The notes: generated by a model from the sequence alone, not told the origin. A stretch of 64,000 nucleotides of DNA from an uncultured Phycisphaerales bacterium (GCA_963844715.1 CAWJPJ010000006.1:640001-704000); one strand, 5' to 3'. Positions 11,974-27,000 are shown, counted from the first letter of the stretch. Made by a program: numbers and translations.

Positions 11974-13110
11974 TCATTGCGCACTCGCACCCGACGGACT
12001 TGAGGAGGGATTCCAATGGTCCTCGCCGCCGAGCACCGCGGGAATGGTGATCGCCGCCGCCTCATCGGCAGTCAGCTGCTTCGACCATTTCACGCGCTTG
12101 TCCGGGATTGCGCCCGGGCCGGTGCTGCCATACTCGGCGTAGCGAACCGTATAAATGCGATTCGGTGCGGACTTCCAGGGGAACCAGCCGTCGGGGCTGA
12201 TTTGCGGGCCCATCCAGCAATTCAAATAAACGACGTTGGCATATTGGCGCCACGGGCGCCCGAGATAGACGGAGCCGTCCTTCACATCGGGCGAGGCGGT
12301 CAATTTGCAGTCTATGAAAACGTACCCGAAGGGCACGCCGCGCACCGTGGAGGCCGCCGTGAGATAGCCGTGGCGCTTGCTGTGGATCTCGCAGCGGTTG
12401 AAGACGGCAGTCGAGTTGCCGAAGATGAAATCGACCCCGCCCTCGATGTAGGAATCTTCGAAATAGAGACGATTGGCGGGGGCAGCCGGTGCAACGGGAG
12501 CCGTGGCGGCCGGCGCACCCCCGGCCGGGATGGGGGCCTCGGCGCCGGGCGACGATCTGCCGTTGGTGTAGATCGTGTCCTGCCACCCCAGGAATCGGCA
12601 GCGGCGATAAATCTGCCTGTCGCCCAGACACGAAATCGCCAGGGCCTGTGAAATGTCCCGAGGAGTGGAATTGGCGAAGGTGACTTCATCCGCCTCGAAA
12701 TCATCGGCATAAGCCACGACGCTGGCGGTTTTAAAGGTTCCGATTTTCTTTCCATCCGGCCCGAGCTTATTCGCCTGGAGATCGAAGGTCAGGATCGTCG
12801 TCTGCGCGTCGTCGCCGTAAACGCGAATCGGCGGTTTATCGCGCGTGATGGTGATGTGCTCGGTGTAGGTGCCGGGCTTGACGTGAATCGTCGCCGGAGC
12901 GGAGCCGGGCATGATGGAATCGATCGCGGCCTGGACCGTCTTAAATTGTCCGGTCCCGTCGGCGGCAACGACGATTTCCGGCGCCGGCTTGGGCACGTTG
13001 CTCACGTTGCTATTGCTGGCGCCGGTGCTGTTGCTGTTGCTGGCACACCCGACCGCGCCAACGATCCAAATCGCGGCGACGCTGCAAACGGCAAGGGTTC
13101 TACCTCTCAT
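11974..13110 (-). CDS. Pectinesterase (CE8) family lipoprotein, paralog 2
   Basis: Lipobox AVGC; FLGWQDTIY, EGGVDFIFG, YLGRPW, YAEYGSTGPGA; start placed at ATG 13110. Confidence 0.92.
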   Translation of the reverse strand: MRGRTLAVCSVAAIWIVGAVGCASNSNSTGASNSNVSNVPKPAPEIVVAADGTGQFKTVQAAIDSIMPGSAPATIHVKPGTYTEHITITRDKPPIRVYGDDAQTTILTFDLQANKLGPDGKKIGTFKTASVVAYADDFEADEVTFANSTPRDISQALAISCLGDRQIYRRCRFLGWQDTIYTNGRSSPGAEAPIPAGGAPAATAPVAPAAPANRLYFEDSYIEGGVDFIFGNSTAVFNRCEIHSKRHGYLTAASTVRGVPFGYVFIDCKLTASPDVKDGSVYLGRPWRQYANVVYLNCWMGPQISPDGWFPWKSAPNRIYTVRYAEYGSTGPGAIPDKRVKWSKQLTADEAAAITIPAVLGGEDHWNPSSSPSGASAQ

Positions 13111-13227
13111 CAATCGATCCTCCTCGTGGGAGGAATGATAGCTTTGACGGGCGTGAGCCGGTAGGCCTGATGTCGATGATCCTCTTGCACTTTTGGCCGG
13201 GAGGATTGCAACAGTAAGATACCCCCC

Positions 13228-15417
13228 ATGCCTCGAACCGCGACCGCGTTTGCTCTCATCCTGCTGTTTCCCGTCTTTGCCCTGGCCGATGTGAATTCGA
13301 TCGGAATGAACTTGACCCAGGTTCCGGCGGACACATTTCTGATGGGCTCGGACAAACCCGGGACATTCTGGGACGAACAGCCGGTGCATCGGGTGACGAT
13401 CTCCCAAAGCTTCTATGTTTCCGATCTGGTGACGATTGACCAATATCGGAAATTCAAGCCGGACGCGGCGCTCAATAACGCCTGCGCGCCCTACGCGGCG
13501 GGGATGAGCTGGTACGACGCGACGGCGTTTTGCGCGTGGCTTTCGAAAGTGGAGAAGAAACCTTATCGGCTGCCGACCGAAGCGGAATGGGAATACGCTT
13601 GCCGCGCGAACCCCGGGATGATCGGGTTTTCGCAGTGGTGCCAGGATGGGTACGGTCCCTATCCCTACGAGGATCAGATCGACCCGGTGGGTTATGCGGA
13701 CGGGCGCGTGAAAGTGATCCGCGGGGCGTATCTGGATGAGCCGAGCAAGTACAGCAATCCCAAGGATTATTTGAATCCGTTTTCGCGGGAAGGGATGCCG
13801 CCAAATTTTGGGCCGATTGGGCCGTTCGGATTGCATCGCATCGGGTTCCGCGTGGTCCAGGCTGATCCACCGGCGGGAAATCCTCTCCCTTTTATTCCCC
13901 CCTACGCCCGGCAAGGGGTGAAGCAGACCGCGGACTTCGTCGCGCTCGGGCCCGACCCCAGTAAACCTTACTTCCGCAAACGGCGGATGCTGCCTATCCC
14001 GCCGGAGGACAGTTCGGATGAACTGATTCGTCACGCGGGGCTCGATCCATCGTTTCGGCATCACAATCACAGCCCAGGCTTGGAGATTCTTCCCAATGGG
14101 GACGTTCTCCTGATCATTTACACCTCTCACAACGAATACGAACCGGAGGTGAGCCTGATCGCATCCCGGCTGCGCTTCGGGGCCGACGAATGGGACTTCC
14201 CCAGTCCCATGTTCGACACGCCCGGCGCCAACGATCACGCCCCGCTGCTCTATAACGATCGCGGCACGCTCTATCTGTTTTGGGGCAATCCATACGCCTG
14301 GGGACATTTCCCGTTTAATTTTGTCACCAGCGTGGATAACGGCGCGGATTGGTCGGGCGTGAAATATCCCGAGGTTGTAGGGCCGATCGGGAACCTCGGG
14401 CGGCCGCAGCCGATTAATACGGTGATTCGCGATTCGATCGGCACGATGTATGTCCCGTCGGATAACGAAGGGGCGCACGCGCTTCTCTGGGCAACCGACG
14501 ATAACGGAAAAACCTCGCGCGATACGGAGGGCAGAACCGGCGGACGGCATACGACGTTCGTCATGCTCAAAGACGGCACGATTCTGGGACTCGGCGGAAA
14601 GGACTCGGATATCAACGGCTATATGCCGGAGTCGGTGTCACATGATGGCGGGAAGAACTACGAGATTTCCGCATCGCCGTTCCACGCCCTGCGGAGCGCG
14701 CAGCGGCCCTGCGTGATTCGGCTTCACAGTGGACGCATTCTCATGGCCGGAGATTGGCGGGCCAGCAAAGGCCCGGCGGCCACGCGATTTTCCGAAAACG
14801 GCTGCTACGTCGCCCTCTCCGACGACGAAGGAAAAACCTGGCATTTCAAAACCCTCCCCGGCACCCAGGCCGGCAAGCATGGCTCGGACACACTCGGCTA
14901 CTGCGTGGCCCGCCAAGCCCCAAATGGGGACATTCACCTTATTACAACTCTCACCCACCCGGCACTCGATCTCGAATTCAACGAGGCATGGATTCTCAGC
15001 GACGATACGGAGACGGACGAATCGAAAATCACGGCCAACTCAGCTACGGCAATTCACGACGTCCGCGATTACCGCGAGGATTACCCCGACGGGTCGCCAC
15101 GAATTACCTGGAGCGCGGGGATCGGGAACGATGGCAGATATCTGCTGGAGGGACCGGAAACGTGGTATTACCCCTCCGGCGTCTTCCAGCGGCAAGCCGC
15201 CTATCACCTCGGCAAAAAAGTCGACACCGAAAATTACTTTTCGCCTGACGGCATCCCCGTCTGGCAATGGGAATACAACGCGGACGGCACGGCCGATTAT
15301 TCGACTTGGTATCCCAACGGAAACCTGCGATCGCAATCAAAGTGGAAGGATATGGAAATGATTCCCAAGAGCGATCGGTTTTATGAATACCCCGGAAAGT
15401 TGTCCGTGGAGCCGTAG
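13228..15417 (+). CDS. Secreted multidomain protein: FGE-sulfatase (SUMF1-like) domain + BNR/Asp-box (sialidase-like) propeller + MORN-like repeats
   Basis: Signal peptide; FLMGS, EQPVHRV, YRLPTEAEWEYACRA, IGFRVV; Asp boxes SVDNGADW, TDDNGKT, SHDGGKNY, SDDEGKTW; C-terminal WYYPSG/WYPNG repeats. Confidence 0.82.
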   Translation: MPRTATAFALILLFPVFALADVNSIGMNLTQVPADTFLMGSDKPGTFWDEQPVHRVTISQSFYVSDLVTIDQYRKFKPDAALNNACAPYAAGMSWYDATAFCAWLSKVEKKPYRLPTEAEWEYACRANPGMIGFSQWCQDGYGPYPYEDQIDPVGYADGRVKVIRGAYLDEPSKYSNPKDYLNPFSREGMPPNFGPIGPFGLHRIGFRVVQADPPAGNPLPFIPPYARQGVKQTADFVALGPDPSKPYFRKRRMLPIPPEDSSDELIRHAGLDPSFRHHNHSPGLEILPNGDVLLIIYTSHNEYEPEVSLIASRLRFGADEWDFPSPMFDTPGANDHAPLLYNDRGTLYLFWGNPYAWGHFPFNFVTSVDNGADWSGVKYPEVVGPIGNLGRPQPINTVIRDSIGTMYVPSDNEGAHALLWATDDNGKTSRDTEGRTGGRHTTFVMLKDGTILGLGGKDSDINGYMPESVSHDGGKNYEISASPFHALRSAQRPCVIRLHSGRILMAGDWRASKGPAATRFSENGCYVALSDDEGKTWHFKTLPGTQAGKHGSDTLGYCVARQAPNGDIHLITTLTHPALDLEFNEAWILSDDTETDESKITANSATAIHDVRDYREDYPDGSPRITWSAGIGNDGRYLLEGPETWYYPSGVFQRQAAYHLGKKVDTENYFSPDGIPVWQWEYNADGTADYSTWYPNGNLRSQSKWKDMEMIPKSDRFYEYPGKLSVEP

Positions 15418-15422
15418 CCATC

Positions 15423-15785
15423 TCAAATGTTCTGGATCGCAGCGAAACAAGCGCCGACCAGCAATATTCCGGCGAACAATCCCGCAAATAGGCCCAGAAC
15501 GAATGGAACCATACCGCGGCGATTAGCGCTAATAGCCAGGAGGAGCAAAACTATCACCAGGGACCCAAAGAAGACGAGGACAAGCGCCCCCGGAACGGAA
15601 TTGGTGGCCGATGCCATAAACAGCACCGCGACGCCGACCACTATCGCGCCGACGACCAATCCAGCCATAAACTGCGCTGCGAGTCGACAGCCGCCGGGCG
15701 GTGCGCCTTCCTCGCCCACGTTGGACCGTTTCGTCCCGTAGCCTAAGAGAATCGGCTGGCGATGTTCGGGCGGCTTTTCGTCCAT
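15423..15785 (-). CDS. Small membrane protein, paralog 1 of 3 (MDEKPP..LGYG; C-terminal PFVLGL...LLVGACF)
   Basis: 120 aa, about three hydrophobic segments; shares motifs with the two adjacent genes. Confidence 0.75.
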   Translation of the reverse strand: MDEKPPEHRQPILLGYGTKRSNVGEEGAPPGGCRLAAQFMAGLVVGAIVVGVAVLFMASATNSVPGALVLVFFGSLVIVLLLLAISANRRGMVPFVLGLFAGLFAGILLVGACFAAIQNI

Positions 15786-15809
15786 GTCTCGGCCTTGGGG
15801 GCTAGCGCG

Positions 15810-16133
15810 TCACCGTCCAATCCTCAGAGGTGCGATGAAGCAGACTCCTTGAAGCAGGAGCCCCAGACACATTCCGCAAAGCAGGCCTTGAGTAAACGGT
15901 GCAATCTTGCGGCGCGACCGGACCATCCAGACGATGAAACCCACGACGGCGACCCCAATTAATCCGAGTACAATCCAACCGACCAGGAGCGAGCCGGTTC
16001 CCCCGGCGGAGAAGCTGGCTACGCAGATGACCGCCACGAACCCGCAAAAGACGCCGCCAAGGCCCGTCGCAAGGGAGAGGCATCCGCTCGGGTCAGGCAT
16101 GCCATAATCGAGAACCGGCGGTTTTTCGTCCAT
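15810..16133 (-). CDS. Small membrane protein, paralog 2 of 3 (MDEKPPVLDYG; C-terminal PFTQGL...LLQGVCF)
   Basis: 107 aa; same N-terminal hexapeptide as paralog 1; Cys-rich TM segments. Confidence 0.75.
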   Translation of the reverse strand: MDEKPPVLDYGMPDPSGCLSLATGLGGVFCGFVAVICVASFSAGGTGSLLVGWIVLGLIGVAVVGFIVWMVRSRRKIAPFTQGLLCGMCLGLLLQGVCFIAPLRIGR

Positions 16134-16150
16134 GAGTTTTCCCCAGCGCC

Positions 16151-16484
16151 TTAAATATTACTGTTGGAAAGAGCGACGAAGCAGACACCTATCAAAAGAA
16201 TCGGGACGAAAACCGCTCCCGTCAAAAGGCCCAAATAGAAAGGTCCGAGTCGCCGGCGCGCTGCGCGTGATCCAGAAATTAATCAGAATCGCCGCGGCCA
16301 GTACCGGAACAAGAACCCACAGCGGATTGCCTACCACCCCAGCAAGGATGAAGAACGCACCGGCTATCCCGCCGGCTCCCAGGAAGGCGCCCGCGAAGAA
16401 AGGACCAACCGCGCCGCCCTGCCGCGGCACCGGAACGACCGCATAATCAAGCGTGGGCGGTAGCGGCGGCTCTTCGTCATCCAC
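16151..16484 (-). CDS. Small membrane protein, paralog 3 of 3 (MDDEEPP..LDYA); frameshift near 16245, corrected C-terminus PFYLGLLTGAVFVPILLIGVCFVALSNSNI
   Basis: GTG start overlaps the radical SAM stop; the alternative frame restores the shared PFxxGL...GVCF motif and ends at TAA 16151. Confidence 0.7.
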
Positions 16485-17926
16485 GATTCTCTCCCCCGAT
16501 CGAAATCGGCGTCAGCCGATCCCGCATTCCATCGTGCATGGCCTGCAATTCCGCGAGACGGCCGCTCTTTCCGTCGCGGTAAAACAAATTGTACGTGTCA
16601 AAGGGGATGATCCGCCCGTCCGGGTGGGCGATGTGGACGCAGGTTTTCTTGACGCCTGCGCACATCAAAATTCCAGGCGTCCAGAAACTGCATGATGATG
16701 ATCCGAAAAATGTTGTCGTAAGTAACGGCCGAGGGAGCGGCGACCTGAGGGAGGCAGCACAAAAGCTGGCGCAACGACAATTCCGAACTCTGCGGGGAGG
16801 CGGCAGTGGAAAACAATTTGAAAAGTTCGGCGCGAAGGCGCGGATCGCGCTCGTAGACGATGGTGTTGCCTTCCCCGTGAAGCAGGACTTTGGGATCGAT
16901 CAGACCGGTGAGGGGAACCACCGAGCCGTTGATCTTCAGAGCGTAAGCCATAGCCAGACAATCGGGGTGGCACGGAACCGGGATCACGTCGGCGGGCTTG
17001 AAGACTGAGGATTGGGAGAGGATGTTCTGGCGAATTTCGCCGAGAGTGAGGCGGTCTTTTTCGGGGTCGAAAGCTTCCAACCGGCCGGCGATTTGAATCG
17101 GCTGAAACGTGATGCCACGGACGCACTTTTGCTTCAGGGCGAAGTCGATGAGGTCGCCGATCTCGTCGTCGTTCAATCCCTTTTTTAGAGTGACGACGAG
17201 GGTGGTGGAAATATTGTGCTCATTGAGGCGATCGAGGGCGCGGCGGCGGACGTCGGACAAATCGCTTCCGCGCAGAACGCGCAATGGGTCCGGGCGCTGG
17301 GAATCCCACTGCAAATAAACCTCGAAACCCGGCATGTAATCCTTCAGGCGGCGCGCGAAATCCGCATCGGAGGCGATCTTCACGCCGTTCGTGTTCACCA
17401 TCAGATGCTTGATGGGGCGGGCCCTTGCGGCATCGAGGACGGCAAAAAAGTCCGGATGAATCGTCGGCTCCCCGCCGCTGATTTGGACAACGTCGGGCTT
17501 GCCTTCGTTACGCACGACGCAATCAAGCATGAACTCGATCTGTTGCATGCTCCGATGCTCAAGCCGATGCGGCGAGGATTCGCTGTAGCAGACGGGGCAG
17601 GTGAGATTGCACTGGTCGGTGATCTCAACGAGCGTGAGGCAGCTGTGCTGCTCGTGATCGGGGCACAATCCGCAATCGTACGGGCAGCCATAGCGGATCG
17701 GGGTGTTGAACTTGAGCGGCATCTGTCCGGGTTTGAGAGTCTGGCGCGAGAGCTTGTAATATTCCGCATCGGTTGAAATCAGCACCCGCTGATATTTGTG
17801 CTGGGGGCACCATTTCTGGAGATAGACCCGGTCGTCCTGAATGATGACCTTGGCCTCGACGCGCCGCAGGCAGGTCGAGCAAATGCTGTTGGTCAATTCG
17901 TAAAAGAGATAGGGGCGATCAGGCAT
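16477..17926 (-). CDS. Radical SAM enzyme of the Tes / MJ0619 (tetraether lipid synthase-like) family; frameshift near 16657
   Basis: N-terminal CSTC...CPQH, GCPYDCGLCPDHEQHSC, rSAM motif CNLTCPVC, SGGEPT, NTNG, PCHPDC, C-terminal KTCVH...DGRIIPFDTYN. Confidence 0.85.
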
Positions 17927-18680
17927 GAACCACCTCGGCGGGCTGACCGGCGGGCTTCCGTAAAAGATTACGCACAGCGCACGCAGCGGCGATGAAGCTG
18001 ACCATCTGAATCGGGCTTAACCCGAAGTATGTTTCGCGCGGCTTGATGAACTCAATCAGGAACCGCCAGGTGAAATAGGAGAAGACAAACCACTGAAACA
18101 TCCGGCCCGGGGTGCGCGGCTTTTGGAGGTAGAACAGAAACACGGCCATCATGACGATGCAGTAGCCGATTTCGTAAAGCTGAGTCGGGTGGCGTGGGAT
18201 GCCGTCGCCGAAATCGACGCCCCAGGGGAGAGACGTGGCAATGCCGTAGGTGTGATCGGGTAACCCCTCGAGAAAACAGCCGACCCGCCCGATGGCCAGG
18301 CCCAGCAGGATGGGGAAGACGAAGCGGTCGCCGGTGGATTGTTTGATGCCGGTAAAGTGTTTTGCGATTTCGACGCCGAGCCAACCGCCGGCGAGGCCGC
18401 CGACGATGGTTTTTCCGCCGAGCAAAAGTCGCGGCTGGTTATAGACGGGCCAGTAGGCGTGAATCGACTCGACAATGGCCAGGATCTTCGAGCCCAGCGC
18501 CGCTCCGGCAAGGCAGCCGACGATGATCCAGAGCCCGGTTTCATTGTTCAACCGCGGGCCGGGGAATTTTTTTCGCGTGATCGAAAAAAGAATCCCCCCG
18601 GCGATGTACCCGGCGGTTTCCATTACCTGATGCGCCTCGATGGCCACGCCGAACGGATGGAAGACAACCGGAAAAGTCAC
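17919..18680 (-). CDS. Prolipoprotein diacylglyceryl transferase-like protein (divergent Lgt paralog)
   Basis: Multi-TM; GGKTIVGG, IGRVGCFLEG, TSLPWG, RHPTQLYE, YFTWRFLIEF; 8-bp overlap with the rSAM start. Confidence 0.85.
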   Translation of the reverse strand: MTFPVVFHPFGVAIEAHQVMETAGYIAGGILFSITRKKFPGPRLNNETGLWIIVGCLAGAALGSKILAIVESIHAYWPVYNQPRLLLGGKTIVGGLAGGWLGVEIAKHFTGIKQSTGDRFVFPILLGLAIGRVGCFLEGLPDHTYGIATSLPWGVDFGDGIPRHPTQLYEIGYCIVMMAVFLFYLQKPRTPGRMFQWFVFSYFTWRFLIEFIKPRETYFGLSPIQMVSFIAAACAVRNLLRKPAGQPAEVVHA

Positions 18681-18739
18681 CTTTACCTCCCCGCAAGTTA
18701 GAATACTCTAACCGAAACGGGTTTGATATTCATTTTTAG

Positions 18740-20812
18740 ATGAGCGCCATACCCTCGATCGATCGAAAGACACTCGTTCAAAGGCTCAACCCCGTCGTTC
18801 ATCGAGCCGATCCCTTTTCGGCGGCTCTCCGTCGGGAACGGCGAATTCGCATTTACATCGGACATCACCGGGCTGCAAACCTTTCCAGACGAATATCACA
18901 CGGATTTCCCACTTTGCACGGCCTCGCATTGGGGCTGGCATACAACCCCCCCGCCGCCAGGCGTCGATCCAATGAATTTCCGGTATGAGATTTACGACAC
19001 CTACGGGCGCAAAGTCGGCTATGCGACCAGCTCGCGCGGCCAGGAAACACTCTTCAACTGGATGCGGCAGAACCCGCATCGATTGCATCTGGGGCGAATC
19101 GGGCTCGAGTTGCTCAAGCCGGACGGTTCGGTGGTCACATCTTCTGACGATTTGACCCACGTTGAGCAAACGCTTGATCTCTGGTCGGGGTTGCTGCAAA
19201 GCAAATTCTCGCTCGGCGATTCTCGGCTCAGCGTTCTGTCGTGTGTTCATCCTGATTTGGATTTGCTCGCGGTTCGAGTTGAGTCGCCGCTGCTGCACGC
19301 GGGCGATTGCGCGTGATCGTTCACTTTCCTTACGCTTCGCCGGAAACGGATATGGCCGATTGGATGAGCCCGGATCGGCATACCACGACGCTGATCCTGG
19401 CCGCGAATTGGGCTCAGTTTCCGCGCAAGCTGGACATGGACGCCTATGGCGCCACGCTCGCGTGGTCCTCCGGCGGCCTGGGCCAAACCGATCCGCATCG
19501 GTTCGTGCTGATCTGTAATGATGCCGATGCGCTGGAATTTGCGATCCATTTTCAGCAACGGCCGACTAATCTGGATCTCCCCTCGTTTGGGGCGACGCGA
19601 GCCGCGGCGGCCGATCATTGGCAGAAATTCTGGAGCAGCGGCGCGGCCATCGATCTGACCAGCAGCACCGCCAAGGAAGCCCCGGAACTTCAGCGGCGAA
19701 TCATCCTCTCGCAATACGTCACGGCGCTGAACTGCGCCGGCTCTCTCCCCCCTGCCGAAACCGGACTGCTTTTCAATTCCTGGTACGGCAAGTTCCATTT
19801 GGAAATGCACTGGTGGCACTCCGTTCATTTCACCGCGTGGAATCGCCCCGAACTATTCGAGCGAAGCTTGGATTATTACCGGCGAATTCTGGGCGTTGCC
19901 TACGAGAATGCGCATCGTCAGGGATACGACGGCTGCCGGTGGCCGAAGATGGTCGGCCCGGACGGGCAGGAATCACCCTCTCCAATCGGCCCGGTGTTGA
20001 TTTGGCAGCAGCCTCATCTGATCTATTACGCGGAACTTTGCTATCGGCGAAAACCGACGGCCGAAACGTTGGATCGATGGAAAGAAATCGTCCTGGAGAC
20101 GGGGGAGTTTTTGTCGCAATACGCCTACCTCGACAAATCGCGAAATCAATATGTACTGGGTCCGCCGCTAAAAACGGTTTCGGAAAACACGGATGCGCAC
20201 ACGAATAAGAATCCCACGTTTGAACTGGCTTATTGGCGCTGGGGTTTGCAAACGGCGATCCAATGGCGGCAGAGATTGAATCTTCCGATTCCACCGCGCT
20301 GGACCGACGTGGTGGCAAAATTGTCCCCCTTGCCGCAGAACAACGGATTGTATCTTCTGCAAGAAGGGCTGCTGGACACATTCGACCGCTGGAACGTCGA
20401 TCACCCCGCGATGCTCGGAGCATTGGGAATGCAGCCGGGAGATGGCGTCGATCCGCAAATCATGGGGGCCACCCTCCGGAAAGTGCTGGACAAGTGGCAA
20501 TGGGATAAAGCATGGGGCTGGGACTTCCCCATGGCGGCGATGTCAGCCGCGAGAACCGGCCAACCGGAACTGGCGATCCAGGCCCTGTTCATCAACAGCC
20601 CGAAAAATCGGTTTCACCCCAACGGACACAATTACCAGCGGCCAAGCCTGACCGCTTATCTGCCAGGCAATGGAGCCCTGCTGGCCGCCATTTCACTGAT
20701 GGCGTGCGGTCTAGAGAAAGACCCGGCCAACGAGGCTTCAGGGTTCCCGAAAAATGGGAAATGGTCCGTTCGGGCGGAGGGGTTTCAGCGGTGGATGGCG
20801 CCTGAATCCTAA
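18740..20812 (+). CDS. Six-hairpin (alpha/alpha)6 glycoside hydrolase-like protein (family often annotated GH65-like); frameshifts near 18800, 18950 and 19305
   Basis: IDRK.LVQR.NP, LSVGNGEFAF..DITGLQTF, NPHRLHLG, PPAETGL..NSWYGKFHLEMHWWH, WGWDFPM, YLPGNGALL across frames. Confidence 0.7.
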
Positions 20813-21052: not shown

Positions 21053-24000
21053 CTATTTCGCAATCGTTCGGCGGCGGCGCCGTTTCAAAAGCACTCCCAT
21101 CGCACCCAAGGACAGCATCATACTGGTCGCCGGTTCCGGCAAAGCATCGATGCTAGTGGCTGCCACGCCGCTCACGGTTGGGTCGCCGTAAGCGGGATTG
21201 CTGAAGTCGAAATCCAGAACCGGATCGTTCGGCACGGAGGGAACTACGATTTCAAGCTGATACGCCGCCATCGCGCTCAGGTCGCCGGTATTTCCATTGC
21301 CTTCCTGTCCGTTCCCGGCCGAGTAATTTCCGGATGCGTCGTACCACGTGTAATCGAACGCGGTCAGATCGCTTTCCAAGCCCGTGAGGCTCTCTCCGCT
21401 GTCGAAGCTGAAGAAGAGGTCGATCGGATTGGACCCGAAGCTCGACGGATTGCCGTTCTGATCGTCAACCTGCATATACAGATAACCGGCTTCCGCGTTC
21501 AGATTCGTCAACGGCGCGGTCGTAAAGGTTCCGTTGCCGTTGTTGGTGACGTACATGGTGTAATTGTTCGTCGTTCCGCCGGCTTCGGGATTGGTGCCGC
21601 CCTGCGTTCCCTGAAGGAGTTGCCGCCCATAGGCAATGGCGTTGCTGTTGGTCGGAACAAGTTCGACCAGAGGGGCAACCGTCGGGGCGACAGTGACGGT
21701 GGCGGTCTGATTGTTGTTGTTATAGCCCTGGTAAGTGTCCTGGTCGCCGTAGGTGAAGCTGTACACTTGGCTCGCCGCAGCCGTGGAGCTGGCGGTGAAT
21801 GAACCGGTATACGTGGGGCTTGAAGCGCCCGCGGTGATCGTCGGCGTTCCGCTGAACCCACTGGTATATCCATTCCCATCCGCCGAGACACCCGACACCG
21901 CCGCGCCGTCGCGGAGCGCCGAGCCGTTCAGCGGGTTGCTGAGCGAATAGTTAAAGTCAACCGTCTGGCCCTGGGTGACGACCGGGTTGAGGATCTGATT
22001 GGGAATCGCGGCGTGATCGAATACCGATCCGGTGATCGTCGCCGTGACATTTGCGTTGCCAACCGCGCTGGCCCCGGGGAGCGACTGATCGTCGCCGGTA
22101 TTGAAGCTCACGTTGACGTTCTGCGTCCCGGCCGTGGAAGCCGCGTTAAAGGCGGCGGAGTAATCGCTGGAAGAGCCCGCGGAAATCACGCCGATGGTTC
22201 CGCCGCTGAGATTCGCGCTGGTCCCGCCGACCTGGAGGCCGGCGCGAGCCGCCCCACCGCCGTCGGTCGCGGCTGCGGCAAGGTTCACGTTCGCCGCCAG
22301 GGCGCCGGAGTTCACGAAGGCGTCAAAGTTGTTGCCCGCGGTAACCGTCGCCGAGGCCAAGGCATGGTCGAGGACGTTGACGGTGACGGTGCCAGTCTGC
22401 GAGCCACTAGTTGAGTTGGAGTCGATGACCGAGAAGGTACCCGTCTGACTCGCGCCGACAGCGGTGCCGTCGAATGACAATCCGGAATAGGGATTGCTAG
22501 TTTGCCCCGCCACGACCGAGCCATTGACCTGGCTGCCGACTACGTTGGAGACATTGGAAGTGTTGAACGTGACCGGGTCCGAGCCGGTCGGAGCAGTGTT
22601 CTGGATCGTGAAACTGAACGGATCGGTCCCGCCGGTGATAATCGAGCTATAGGTCGGCGTCGCGGTGATCGTGCCGATCGTTTCCCTGTGGACCAGATCG
22701 GTTTCACCGGTGTTCAACTCCAAGTGATACGCGGGGTTCGAGACGCCGGTAAGATTAAGTGTGGCAAACCCCCCGTTCGCCGCGAGGTTCGTGCCATGGC
22801 TGAGGGTCGTATAGGTCATCAGGGTGTATTTGCCCTGATCGAGCGAGCCGAGATTCAAGGCCAGGATGTCGCTCGTGCTGGAGGTGTTGAGTGTGCCGAC
22901 GACGGCGAGTTCGTCGTTATTCCCCGCGCCGACGCCGAGAGACAATTCGCTGTCCGCGCCGAAGGTTACGGTGTTGTTATGGCCGGTGGTGCCGACGCTC
23001 AACGTCGCCATCGACGTATTGGTATCGCCGGGCGAGAGAATTGCCAGGACGGTCCCGGATTTACCGGTGAGGGTCAACGTGTCATTGGTCGCCAGGCCGA
23101 TGGTTCCGGTGCCACCCAGCGTCGTGCTGGCGGTGATGCTGTTGGGAATGGAAACGTTGCCCAGACCAGAATCCGTCCCGTCAATATAGAGGGTTCCGGC
23201 GTCAATCGTGGTGGTCCCGGTGTAGGAGTCATTGCCGGACAGGAGCAGGACACCGCCGCCCTTTACGGTCACCGACTCGATGGTGTTGTTGAAGGGGATG
23301 AGGTTGGACGTGACGGCGAGGTTTACGCCGGGATAAAGGCCGCCGGAAACCGTCGCGGTGGCGATGTTAAAGGTCGTCGCCGACTGAATGCTGACGCTTC
23401 CGCCGCTGATCATCGCGGTCGTCGACGCGGCGTCGGTCGTAACGGCGGCGGCGTCGCTGGTGCCGAAGAGAGAGTAGTTCCCGCCCTGGGAGTCGCCGTT
23501 GTTTCCCAAAGCGGCGACCAGGGAGCCGCCGGTGAACGTCAGATTGGGCAGTGTGATGCGGTAGCTGGATGTCCCCAGATCGGTGACCGTTCCGCCGCTA
23601 ATGGCGATCGTTCCCGGGGCCGTGTCGTTCCAATAGCCGAACGCATCCGTTTCTCCGCCGATCAAAGTGCCGCCGGACTCAACCGTGGTGGTACCCGAAC
23701 CGAGGGCGGTATCGCCGGTGTTGAGGCTGCCGGCAACTTCAACCGTTCCATTAATAGTCAAACCGCCGGTGTAGGAGTTATTGCCGGTCAGCAGCAGCGT
23801 TCCTGCACCGGACTCGCTGATGCTGTGGCTGCCGGAGATTATGCCCCCGACGGTGAGCGTGCTTCCCGAGACGGTGACCGTCGGGTTAGTTCCAAGCGTG
23901 ACGGCGCCCGTGCCGAGATTCAGGCTGCTGGTCCCGCCGAAGGTGAAGCTGCTGTTCCAGTTCTGAGTGACGTTGTGGCTGAGGGTGATGGGGTTGCTGG

Positions 24001-27000
24001 TCGTGTTATCGAAGTTTCCGCCCGCGATCGTGAAGTTGCCCGTGCCGATCGCGGAGGCGCTATTGATATCGAGCGTGCCGGCGTCGAGGACAGTGCCACC
24101 GCTATAAGTATTCGTGTTGGAGAGAACCAGGGTGCCGGTGCCGGTTGCCATGGTCAGTATAGCGCCGGTGCCCCCGCTGAAGAGGCCGGTCTCGGCGAAA
24201 GTCATTCCGCTGGCGATGTTAAAGGTATCGGTGCCGGTGTTCAGTGTAACCGCTCGGCTGCCGGAAACGTTGCCCGTCGCGTTCAATGTGCCGCTGGCCA
24301 GTGTGATCCCGCCGGACGCGCCGAGGTTGCTGTCGCTGGAGATGCTGAGCGTGCCGGCATCAATGATCGTCCCGCCGGTGTAGGTATTGAGCCCGGAGAG
24401 AACCAGGGTGCCGGTGCCGGTCGCCATGGTCAGCGCGCCGCTCTGGCCAGTGACGTTGGCGATGACGCCGCCGTAATTCAGGGTCTGACCGCTGGCGACG
24501 TTGATCGTCCCGCCGGACGTTCCAAGCTGAATTCCGCGATCGCTGTCGAGGGTCAGGCTGGCGGTGTCCTTCAAGGTGCCGCCGGAGAACGTCAGGAAGT
24601 TCGCAACGGGAGTGCCGGCCGGCAGCGGTTGGGGGCCTAAATCGAGATCGTTGCTGATACTGAGCGTGCCGCTGGAGAGGTTCCATAAGCCGGAGTAGGG
24701 GTTGCTGCCGCCGAGGACGACCGTGCCCGCGCCGGCGATATTCATCGTGTCATTCGACGCGCCGGCGGAAAGATCGCCAGCGTCGATCGTGAAGTGTCCT
24801 GTCCATGCTGCTGGTTTTCAAAGTGAAAGTATCGCCCGCGGTTGCGTCCAGATTGATCGCGGCGTTTTCGACCGCCGTTGTTCCGCTGCCTTCCACCGCG
24901 CCGCCGCTGTTGAGGGTCGACCTGGGCAGTCGAGGTGATTCCGCCAAACTGAAGGGTGCCGCCCGTTTTCGACGACGGGAATCGCTGATCCGAGTGCGCC
25001 ATCTGGCGGTGACATTCCACAATTCCACTGTTGACGGTGACGCCGCCCGGTGAAAGAGTTGGATCCATCGGAGAGAGTGACTGTTCCGCTTCCGCTCATC
25101 GCCAGGCTGCCGCCGGTGCCGCTGATCAAGCCGGAAATATTCGGCGTGGTCTTGCTGTTATTCAAAGTCAGGGCGTTGCCGCCCAGGTTGACCGCGCCGG
25201 CGCCGGTGAGAGAGAGCAGGCTTTGATTCGGCGCCAAGGGCGAGCGTGCCGGGTGTTGGTGACATCCGCGGTGCCGCTGCCGAGCGCGCCGGTCGTATTA
25301 AGGTTTAGCGTTGAGCCGGGCTAACGGTGACGCGCGGTCCCGGTGACAAGAGAAGAGGCCGCTGTTCCCAATGTGGAAGAGCCGCTGCCGGAGAAGGTGA
25401 TCGTTCGCCCGTGCCGCCGTCGGCCAGCGCGCCGAGGGTGAGGGCTGTGCCGGTCGCGCGCGATGAAGGTGGCGTTGCCGGTCAGGGTGGTTGTGCCGAA
25501 GGTCAGACGCGGCCGTTCCGCTGGCGACGTTGGTCCCTTTTGCGAGGCTCAGGGTGTTGTGCGCCGATGGAGAGGGTGCCGAGGGTGTAGTTGACGCCCG
25601 CGCCGCTGCCGGCGAGGTCGGACGTAAGTGTCGAGGTCCGCCGAATGGTCGTGTTGTAGGCGGTGAGGGCTCCGCCGGTTTGAAGATCGAGGGTTCCGCC
25701 GTTCAAAACCACTGCGCCGGTTCCGAGAGAGGCGGAGTTTTGAGCCGCCAGTGTTCCGGCCGACACGGTAGTGTTGCCTGAATAGGTGTTGGCGGTGGTC
25801 AGGAAAAGCGTACCGGCGCCGGTGGCCAGGGTGAGGCCCCCGGTTTGCCCGGAGACGTTGGCGATCGTTCCGCCATAGGTGAGTGTTTTGGTACTGGCTG
25901 ACGTCGAACGTGCCGCCGGCGGTGCCGAGCTGTATTCCGCGATACTGGCTTAGGGCAAAGCTCGCGGTGGCGTCGAGGGTTCCGCCGCTAAAGGTGAGAT
26001 AGTTAGCCACGCCAGGGGAAGTCGGCGCGGCACCGAGATCGGTGTCAGCACCGATGCTCAGGGTGCCGGAACTCAGATTCCACAAACCAGCATAGGTATT
26101 GGCTCCGCCCAGGGTGATGGTTCCAGCGCCTGCGACGGTGATAGTGGAGGTGGACGCCCCGCCGCTCAGATCACCCGAATCGATGGTGAATGAATCGGAG
26201 GCGGTGCTGCTGGTTTCGAGGGTGAATGTGCCACTGGCCGTATTGGCGAGGATCATGGCCGCGTTTTGAACGGACGTTCCGCTGCCTTCAAGCAGCAGTG
26301 TCCGCGTCAAAAGTCAAAGCCTTGGTCGAAGTGATTCCGGCCAACTGCAACGTGCCGCCGTTGATGGTGGCGGTGCCGGTGCCCATCGCGCCAGCCGCGG
26401 TGATTTCAAGGGTTCCCCCGTCGACGTTTACGCCGCCGCTGAAGGAGTTCGACCCGTCGGACAGGATGTAGGTGCTAGATCCGGTCTCGGTGACAGCGAC
26501 CGTACGCAGCCCCGTGCCGTTGCTGATGGCGCCACTCAGGGTAACGACTCCGGCTCCAGTGCCAGTGAGGTTGAGCGTGGCGCCGGTGTTACTTCCGTTA
26601 TTTGTAAACGCGTTGGCGATGCTTTCATTGCTGGCGGAGCTTTGAGTGATGGTGGGATTGGCCTCGATATCAAAGGAATCGCCACCGAGGAAGAATGCGC
26701 CGCCGCCACTGCTGAAGGTCAGTGCTGGTGAAGATAAAGTCGTTGGCGATGTTGTTATCAAGGGGGATGGTGTTAGTACCAAGATTTTTTGTTCCCGCAA
26801 AGATGAGCGCCGTGGCCGTATTGGACGTGGGGGCAGTGCCGCCCCAGTTGCCGGTATTGCTCCAGTCGCTGGCAGTTCCACCAGTTCCGCCCCCGTTCCA
26901 GGTAAACGTCGCGGCCGATGCCGCGGCAGCGTTGGCATTGCCACCACACCCGCGATCGCCAGCGCCATAACCCCGGCGGCTTTGGCCTTACCTCTAAATG

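Follow-up and report, generated by a model that had tools for sequence, protein, structure and literature searches.

A candidate lipid-modification cassette that combines an Lgt paralog, a Tes-like radical SAM enzyme and small cysteine proteins in bacteria

Five genes are located head to tail on the minus strand between positions 15,423 and 18,680 of a 64,000-nucleotide stretch of DNA from an uncultured Phycisphaerales bacterium (GCA_963844715.1 CAWJPJ010000006.1:640001-704000; the whole stretch is called the window, and positions are counted from its first letter). They encode a paralog of the lipoprotein-modifying enzyme Lgt, an enzyme of the radical S-adenosylmethionine (SAM) family that is related to the lipid-tail enzyme Tes (GDGT-MAS), and three small membrane proteins. 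An earlier note, made from the sequence of the window, had described them as five tightly packed genes of a candidate lipid-modification system, and the open reading frame (ORF) list finds all five at the places that it gave:

17919-18680, minus strand: Lgt-family paralog of 253 aa with a GTG start, matching PF01790.
16477-17926, minus strand: Tes/GDGT-MAS-like radical SAM gene, matching PF23545 (Zn_ribbon_HMPTM) and PF04055.
16158/16151-16484, minus strand: small membrane protein 1 with a GTG start, from a three-frame translation.
15810-16133, minus strand: small membrane protein 2 of 107 aa with the tail RSRRKIAPFTQGLLCGMCLGLLLQGVCFIAPLRIGR, from the ORF list.
15423-15785, minus strand: small membrane protein 3 of 120 aa with three predicted helices and the tail ANRRGMVPFVLGLFAGLFAGILLVGACFAAIQNI, from the ORF list.

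Two of these genes carry a one-base insertion as assembled, one in the radical SAM gene (around 16655) and one in small gene 1 (around 16261), and the earlier note did not report these frame breaks. The assembled radical SAM ORF (16598-17926) ends at a stop at 16598 and encodes 442 aa, and the conserved C-terminus, which starts with VKKTCVHIAHPDGRIIPFDTYNLFYRDG, is found in another frame (16477-16668) and runs to 16477. Intact orthologs have 469-491 aa (n = 11), and alignment with these 11 proteins places the break directly after NFDVR, which fits a single extra G at 16655. Small gene 1 as assembled is without a Cys tail; the tail is found in another frame, where it reads ...LLIGVCFVALSNSNI before the stop and ends at 16151. 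In the corrected reading, small protein 1 ends with ...RTRRRLGPFYLGLLTGAVFVPILLIGVCFVALSNSNI, a tail that agrees with the family motif, and the GTG start of its gene overlaps the stop of the radical SAM gene by 8 nt. The start of the radical SAM gene at 17926 produces an 8-nt overlap with the Lgt-like gene, and removal of both extra bases gives overlaps and gaps of exactly 8, 8, 17 and 24 nt. The spacing described before thus holds for the first overlap as assembled, whereas the second overlap and the 17- and 24-nt gaps appear only after the two bases are removed. Likewise, the description of three Cys-tailed paralogs applies to small proteins 2 and 3 as they stand, and to small protein 1 once its insertion is taken out.

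Four soil-metagenome runs that belong to a single study provide short-read contigs, which have been compared with the window over 15400-18700. The base at 16261 is missing in one contig each of runs X1 and X3, both at a depth of 2.8, and the base at 16655 is missing in one 151-nt contig of run X3 at a depth of 2; no listed contig of run X1 spans 16655. Because these contigs show no further differences from the window over this interval, both frame breaks are probably assembly errors, and the operon is probably intact in the organism. The short-read depth is low (2-2.8), and the runs may stem from the same sample as the window assembly. The contigs of run X1 end at 16637 and resume at 16677, flanking the break site in the radical SAM gene, and a partly matching contig of another organism terminates at 16655.

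The Lgt paralog matches PF01790 with 94.6 bits (cut-off 24.9; E 7.4e-27) but falls far under the cut-off of every NCBIfam Lgt model (40.8 against 118.9 for TIGR00544 and 65.5 against 334 for NF000778). Its AlphaFold model (pLDDT 93.7) has the seven-helix Lgt fold, and 5AZB is the sole fold match of the model in the PDB at E <= 0.001 (E 7.4e-8, TM 0.61/0.56). The gene had been read as a divergent Lgt, and both the fold and the family agree with this. The canonical Lgt is encoded elsewhere in the genome, with a PF01790 score of 249 bits compared to 94 for the paralog. A third Lgt-family locus (G000:C7:794002-794735) consists of two pieces (L044 and L045) with one in-frame TGA, which fits either assembly indel errors or a broken paralog.

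In E. coli Lgt, the headgroup of phosphatidylglycerol is held by Arg143, Asn146, Ser198, Glu202, Tyr235, Arg239 and Arg246, His103 has been proposed to act as the base in the deprotonation of the lipobox Cys, and mutation of His103 or Asn146 (N146A) abolishes the activity (excerpt of PMC8689077). An alignment of 75 paralogs with E. coli Lgt and the canonical Lgt of the genome shows that R143, G154, Y235 and R239 are kept in 75/75, D129 and H196 in 74/75 each, and E202 as E or D in 75/75. In contrast, H103 is replaced by V, L or I and N146 by Cys in all 75 paralogs, Y26 by His in 74/75 and R246 by Lys in 72/75, and a His stands at the position of E151 in 37/75. In the paralog of the window, H17, a Val and C135 take the places of Y26, H103 and N146, and R132, Y202 and R206 correspond to R143, Y235 and R239. 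Tyr26 itself was reportedly found to be essential in E. coli Lgt by Pailler et al. in 2012. This pattern suggests that the phospholipid pocket is kept and that the catalytic apparatus may have been rebuilt around a new His/Cys pair. With His103 and Asn146 missing, the chemistry of the paralog may differ from diacylglyceryl transfer. Two charged residues within a transmembrane helix (E104 and K107 in GVEIAKH) are invariant in 56/56 paralogs and have no counterpart in E. coli Lgt.

The second enzyme is homologous to GDGT-MAS over its full length, the layout of four domains included, as residues 11-455 of an intact ortholog from the same genus match residues 24-502 of the 7TOL chain with an E-value of 4.5e-65. 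Orthologs in the family of the window are 57-84% identical to the enzyme, the highest value being that of the same-genus ortholog. C16/C19/C40/H43, which fit a rubredoxin-like Fe site (three Cys and one His), C81/C85/C88 with H91/H94, which fit the N-terminal cluster (three Cys and one His), and C106/C110/C113, which fit the radical SAM (RS) cluster, are all invariant in 12/12 orthologs; these ligands are assigned by motif and not by structure, following the scheme in an excerpt of PMC13459092. C268, C319, C390 and C428 are also conserved and have been compared with the C-terminal cluster of Tes, in which three Cys and one Met ligate the cluster that captures the lipid radical.

TrsS (NF045646) is the best-scoring NCBIfam model for the enzyme of the window, with 286.2 against a cut-off of 490, and Tes (NF045702) gives 238.6 against 450. 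Intact orthologs reach 328-340 for TrsS and 286.9 and 299.7 for Tes, which are also under the cut-offs. Because the scores are under the cut-offs and the gene context is different, the enzyme is considered to be neither a true Tes nor a true TrsS. In the proteins named TrsS by NCBI (P0244, P0245 and P0247), the Zn-ribbon/radical SAM core is fused to HD and NTP-transferase domains, and TrsS of this type represents a separate, likewise uncharacterised branch of the Tes superfamily.

The two enzymes occur together. The window's genome and 40 relatives form a set of 41 genomes, of which 12 have both the Lgt paralog and the radical SAM enzyme, 29 (including the unpublished genome G004) have neither, and none has one alone. 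Orthologs of the radical SAM enzyme are found in these 12 genomes at E <= 5.5e-164, the next best match being 1.3e-53. The Lgt paralog has matches at E <= 3.8e-55 in the same 12 genomes and in no other genome at E <= 1e-10, and the canonical Lgt of the window's genome matches the paralog query with merely 4.2e-11. The paralog adjoins the radical SAM gene in 11/11 orthologous loci, and no Lgt paralog occurs within 1.5 kb at eight loci whose radical SAM homologs reach only 25-31% identity.

A wider scan with the alignment of radical SAM orthologs, using one genome per species, yields at least 592 confirmed relatives, the best 80 of which have been examined. These 80 are 59-84% identical and come from at least nine phyla, including Planctomycetota, Bacillota (Paenibacillus, Neobacillus, Brevibacillus, Cohnella and others), Acidobacteriota, Bacteroidota, Gammaproteobacteria, Melainabacteria, Myxococcota, Gemmatimonadota and Elusimicrobiota. 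Such a high identity across phyla suggests that the substrate is invariant and lipid-like rather than a set of variable peptides. The Lgt paralog is located within 4 kb of the radical SAM gene in 71 of these 80 loci. Three of the other nine have less than 300 nt of upstream sequence, and when five genomes of this group are searched as a whole, a paralog-grade match is found in four: 3.9 kb and about 7 kb upstream on the same contig in two of them, and on other contigs in the remaining two.

At locus L041, the Lgt paralog and the radical SAM enzyme are read as a single ORF of 985 aa, and the database proteins P0241-P0243 (784-825 aa) contain PF01790, PF23545 and PF04055 in that order. Because the C-terminus of Lgt is cytoplasmic (excerpt of PMC8689077), a fusion at this end would place the radical SAM enzyme in the cytoplasm. 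Clustering over the best 80 loci reveals no further conserved gene of 100 aa or more within 4 kb; its output consists of just the two enzymes, which the fused ORF joins into one cluster, and of antisense shadow ORFs. The system therefore appears to be self-contained, with two enzymes and the small proteins as its three parts.

Small proteins with a Cys tail accompany the enzymes. A strict Cys-tail filter is passed by 32 of 32,843 six-frame ORFs in the window's genome. Over the 80 loci, 48 ORFs pass it in the zone beside the radical SAM gene and four elsewhere, and at least one ORF on the same strand passes it beside the radical SAM gene in 12/12 orthologous loci, the window included, with none on the opposite strand. 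A C-terminal hidden Markov model (HMM), built from the last 42 residues of 57 candidates, finds matches (E < 0.01) on the same strand as the radical SAM gene in 58/91 loci, compared to one match on the opposite strand. A looser pattern scan, judged by eye, adds 16 loci, so that candidates are present in 74/91. Among 48,885 six-frame ORFs of the window's genome, the HMM matches only small proteins 2 and 3, and the next E-value is 0.31. Such an arrangement is far beyond chance. The co-occurrence of the small ORFs with the Lgt/radical SAM pair, on which the earlier note had staked its proposal, thus recurs both in the family of the window and in at least nine phyla, and the neighbourhood survey that it had suggested comes out in its favour.

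The small genes are present in one to three copies per locus, before or after the radical SAM gene. The 87 small proteins collected have a common core, in which a basic flank precedes a transmembrane helix and the Cys comes after it, with G, A, S or T at position -2 (80/87). A distance of 1-14 residues (median 8) separates the Cys from the C-terminus in 75/87; the other 12, most of them from Acidobacteriota, have the Cys between a first and a second helix. K and R number 201 in the 13 residues before the Cys-bearing helix and 31 in the 13 residues after the Cys (n = 87). According to the positive-inside rule, such a bias means that the Cys should be on the outer side of the membrane in either architecture, and the Cys-bearing helix is predicted to be oriented N-in to C-out.

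The inverted build, found at L086, L087, L088, L093, L108, L111, L116, L119 and L120, mainly in Acidobacteriota but also in two gammaproteobacterial metagenome-assembled genomes (L119 and L120), consists of a basic N-terminus, a helix, a stretch such as LGLCG or SSCFG, and then a second helix with a basic cytoplasmic tail. The inverted genes mostly lie between the Lgt paralog and the radical SAM gene.

The N-terminal parts of the small proteins vary from lineage to lineage, with an L-[DN]-Y-G motif in the family of the window, a B-box zinc finger in Paenibacillus, and zinc ribbons or a domain of about 130 aa in others. At least 90% of 48 aligned relatives retain residues L108 and C113 of small protein 3. 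The small proteins of the window match no Pfam or NCBIfam family, and searches of their relatives against the same models return nothing but the B-box zinc finger in the N-termini from Paenibacillus. In the protein atlas, the nearest clusters of small protein 3 are unnamed hypothetical proteins, and a small-protein search gave unnamed clusters only. NF058595 ("lipo-invert putative C-terminal anchoring domain") has been considered as the family of the small proteins and rejected, as its matches are weak and sub-threshold: three of the 87 reach 14.5-16.6 bits against a cut-off of 37, the small proteins of the window have no match, and five to six genomes scanned contain nothing above the cut-off. 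A literature search for "lipo-invert" found no paper.

The reading that we favour, with moderate confidence, has the Lgt paralog attach a lipid to the Cys that the small proteins expose in the outer leaflet, and the Tes-like enzyme carry out radical chemistry on the lipid tails before or after this transfer. The small proteins would insert into the membrane with their last helix (the first in Acidobacteriota) oriented N-in to C-out, and an orientation of this kind would bring the conserved Cys to the outer leaflet, where Lgt-type active sites work. The paralog would bind a phospholipid through the retained Arg/Tyr/Arg/Glu pocket and move a lipid moiety to the Cys. This moiety may be diacylglyceryl, or possibly an acyl group that passes through a covalent enzyme intermediate, because the new His/Cys pair stands at the positions of His103 and Asn146. 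The cytoplasmic radical SAM enzyme, which would be docked at the paralog's cytoplasmic C-terminus or fused with it, would apply Tes-type chemistry to unactivated carbons of the lipid tails, either in the donor lipid ahead of the transfer or in the lipid already bound to the protein. The outcome would be a small membrane protein whose remodelled lipid forms a macrocycle or is joined to a second lipid. That a lipid is transferred, which lipid it is and that tails are coupled are inferences from the genes, their linkage, the conserved residues and the predicted topology.

Several observations weigh against this reading. As assembled, frame breaks interrupt two of the five genes, and only one or two contigs at a depth of 2-2.8 support intact frames. 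No candidate small protein is found in 17/91 loci, although several of these are short contigs. The canonical lipobox pattern [LVI][ASTVI][GAS]C, with which the N-terminal signal peptide of Lgt acceptors ends, fits only 6/87 small proteins, position -1 being often L, I, T or V. Since the filters used to collect the small proteins prefer a Cys that comes behind a hydrophobic segment, the invariance of the Cys is partly built in. The paralog has lost both His103 and Asn146, either of which is essential in E. coli Lgt, so that it might not transfer lipid at all. Furthermore, with the Cys predicted to be outside and the radical SAM enzyme to be cytoplasmic, the two enzymes cannot directly reach the same atom. 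Thus, the earlier claim that the paralog lipidates the Cys agrees with the topology, the Lgt fold, the headgroup residues and the C-terminal fusions, but sits poorly with the non-canonical lipobox and the two lost residues. A complex prediction for the paralog and residues 62-120 of small protein 3, run without controls, scores 0.00 against a mark of 0.32 and counts neither way.

It is unlikely, though more plausible than the other alternatives, that the cassette is a free-lipid pathway, in which the two enzymes make or move a novel membrane lipid, e.g. a tail-coupled or macrocyclic glycerolipid, and the small proteins are accessory, serving as a scaffold, a membrane tether of the radical SAM enzyme or a regulator, with the Cys being structural or metal-binding. 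The conservation of the radical SAM enzyme across phyla and its full-length homology to a lipid-tail enzyme would suit such a pathway, as would the retained headgroup-binding residues of the Lgt paralog, and the new His and Cys, together with the His at the position of E151, could form a metal site. However, the small proteins are multi-copy and fast-evolving, their N-termini are variable, and they share only the signal-peptide-like helix and the Cys, so that they look like substrates rather than subunits. Moreover, the cassette is present in isolates of Paenibacillus, Neobacillus and Chitinophagaceae, groups for which we know of no reports of membrane-spanning lipids, although no search for such reports was made. 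In addition, Tes homologs match the producers of diabolic and iso-diabolic acids poorly: outside Acidobacteria, no such producer was found to have one, and among the acidobacteria that make iso-diabolic acid, only 3 of 14 do (excerpt of PMC13159169).

A bolder form of the favoured reading, which we regard as distinctly unlikely, is that the product is a protein-bound membrane-spanning lipid. The paralog would fix a glycerolipid on the Cys, and the docked radical SAM enzyme would weld one of its tails to a tail of the inner leaflet or to the sister tail. As a corollary, the paralog would have changed its chemistry, and its use of the new His/Cys pair in place of His103 and Asn146 would imply covalent or metal-assisted catalysis. 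If true, a protein that a bola- or macrocyclic lipid staples across the bilayer would be without precedent in bacteria.

A mechanism like that of ribosomally synthesized and post-translationally modified peptides, in which the small proteins are direct targets of the radical SAM enzyme, e.g. for the formation of a thioether or a cross-link at the Cys, and the Lgt paralog lipidates, anchors or scaffolds the product, is very unlikely. The small genes are paralogous, multi-copy and next to a radical SAM gene, as precursor peptide genes are, and Tes chemistry goes through a carbon-sulfur intermediate (excerpt of PMC13459092). However, the Cys is predicted to be on the side of the membrane opposite to the cytoplasmic radical SAM enzyme, the conservation of the enzyme far exceeds that of the small proteins, a difference that sets it apart from maturases evolving along with their peptides, and the enzyme's best structural relative binds lipids and not peptides. 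It is highly improbable that the cassette is decaying in this genome, with both insertions real, the radical SAM enzyme deprived of its C-terminal cluster region and small protein 1 of its Cys tail: both insertions are present in the assembled sequence and the third Lgt-family locus is likewise split, but short-read contigs that are otherwise identical are without both bases, the proteins are still 84% identical to the same-genus ortholog, and an assembly of eight contigs with 85% estimated completeness would fit long-read indel errors.

Protein lipidation in bacteria is thought to go through one Lgt pathway that acts on N-terminal lipoboxes, and to our knowledge, radical tail coupling of the Tes type has been reported for free lipids of archaea only. 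If lipidation of the small proteins is indeed combined with radical chemistry on the lipid tails, a module that joins the two and brings its own substrates would represent a new class of protein-lipid modification. The cassette occurs in at least nine phyla, including cultivable and non-pathogenic soil isolates of Paenibacillus, Neobacillus, Cohnella, Niabella, Oleiagrimonas and Paracidobacterium. The invariant swap in the paralog (loss of His103, Asn146 to Cys and Tyr26 to His) offers a natural experiment on the mechanism of Lgt. Homologs of Tes have been noted in bacteria, with a role in branched tetraethers guessed (excerpt of PMC8941075), and these long-puzzling proteins would gain a testable function. 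The earlier note knew of no pathway that combines the three parts, and a full-text literature search likewise finds no description of the cassette; the list of bacterial Tes homologs in PMC8941075 could include family members. In a 2026 review of lipid-modifying radical SAM enzymes, both "Lgt" and "lipoprotein" are absent. The only public name of the paralog is "prolipoprotein diacylglyceryl transferase (family protein)".

Downstream of the operon, a convergent plus-strand gene (13228-15417) encodes a protein of 729 aa with FGE-sulfatase and BNR-repeat domains. Its stop is 5 nt away from the stop of small gene 3, and such a spacing leaves the cassette without room for a downstream terminator of its own. 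A promoter and terminator scan of 15200-19400 gives one promoter-like site against 1.9 expected and no informative terminator. An 858-aa ORF on the minus strand (11974-14550) is an over-extended frame: pectinesterase (PF01095) makes up its C-terminal third only, a signal-peptide-like start lies near 13100, and the remainder is antisense to the 729-aa gene. On the other side of the operon, a minus-strand gene (21053-24745) encodes a protein of 1230 aa with passenger-associated transport (PATR) repeats and the tail ...LPEPATSMMLSLGAMGVLLKRRRRR, which we take to resemble a PEP-CTERM sorting tail.

The cassette can be compared with several known systems. In the PEP-CTERM/exosortase and PGF-CTERM/archaeosortase systems, a short C-terminal helix is read by a dedicated membrane enzyme, as is proposed for the small proteins. 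However, the small proteins have the Cys inside the helix, no PEP or PGF motif and no basic tail. Lgt transfers diacylglyceryl from phosphatidylglycerol to a Cys thiol. E. coli Lgt (5AZB/5AZC; PF01790, TIGR00544) and the paralog have the seven-helix fold, the Pfam family and the RHPxQLYE stretch in common, and in both cases the acceptor Cys, known or presumed, follows an N-in to C-out helix whose N-flank is basic, like that of a lipoprotein signal peptide. Unlike Lgt, the paralog is a second or third copy beside the canonical enzyme, always has a radical SAM enzyme as its partner, in some cases as a fusion, and has dedicated mini-proteins as its presumed acceptors, in which no mature domain follows the Cys near the C-terminus.

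Among radical SAM enzymes, TrsS, which is listed as a selenoprotein in a table (excerpt of PMC13188914), shares the Zn-ribbon and radical SAM architecture with the cassette enzyme but is fused to HD/NTP-transferase domains instead of Lgt. Mss of Thermotoga, the membrane-spanning lipid synthase of Sahonero-Canavesi et al. 2022, is also a bacterial radical SAM enzyme and couples fatty-acid tails, but it is only remotely related to Tes (excerpt of PMC13159169), it comes from anaerobes, and the excerpts of the literature consulted report no Lgt or mini-protein partners for it. Tes/GDGT-MAS (MJ0619; 7TOL/7TOM), the tetraether lipid synthase of archaea, which couples membrane lipids tail to tail through C-C bonds, is similar to the cassette enzyme in the N-terminal ribbon of three Cys and one His, the GCPxDCGLCPxH and CX3CX2C motifs, and the C-terminal NFDV...IPF.TYN block. 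In contrast to Tes, the cassette enzyme is bacterial and is accompanied by the Lgt paralog and the Cys mini-proteins, and the C-terminal Cys of GDGT-MAS (PFCTYN) is an Asp in the cassette enzyme (PFDTYN).

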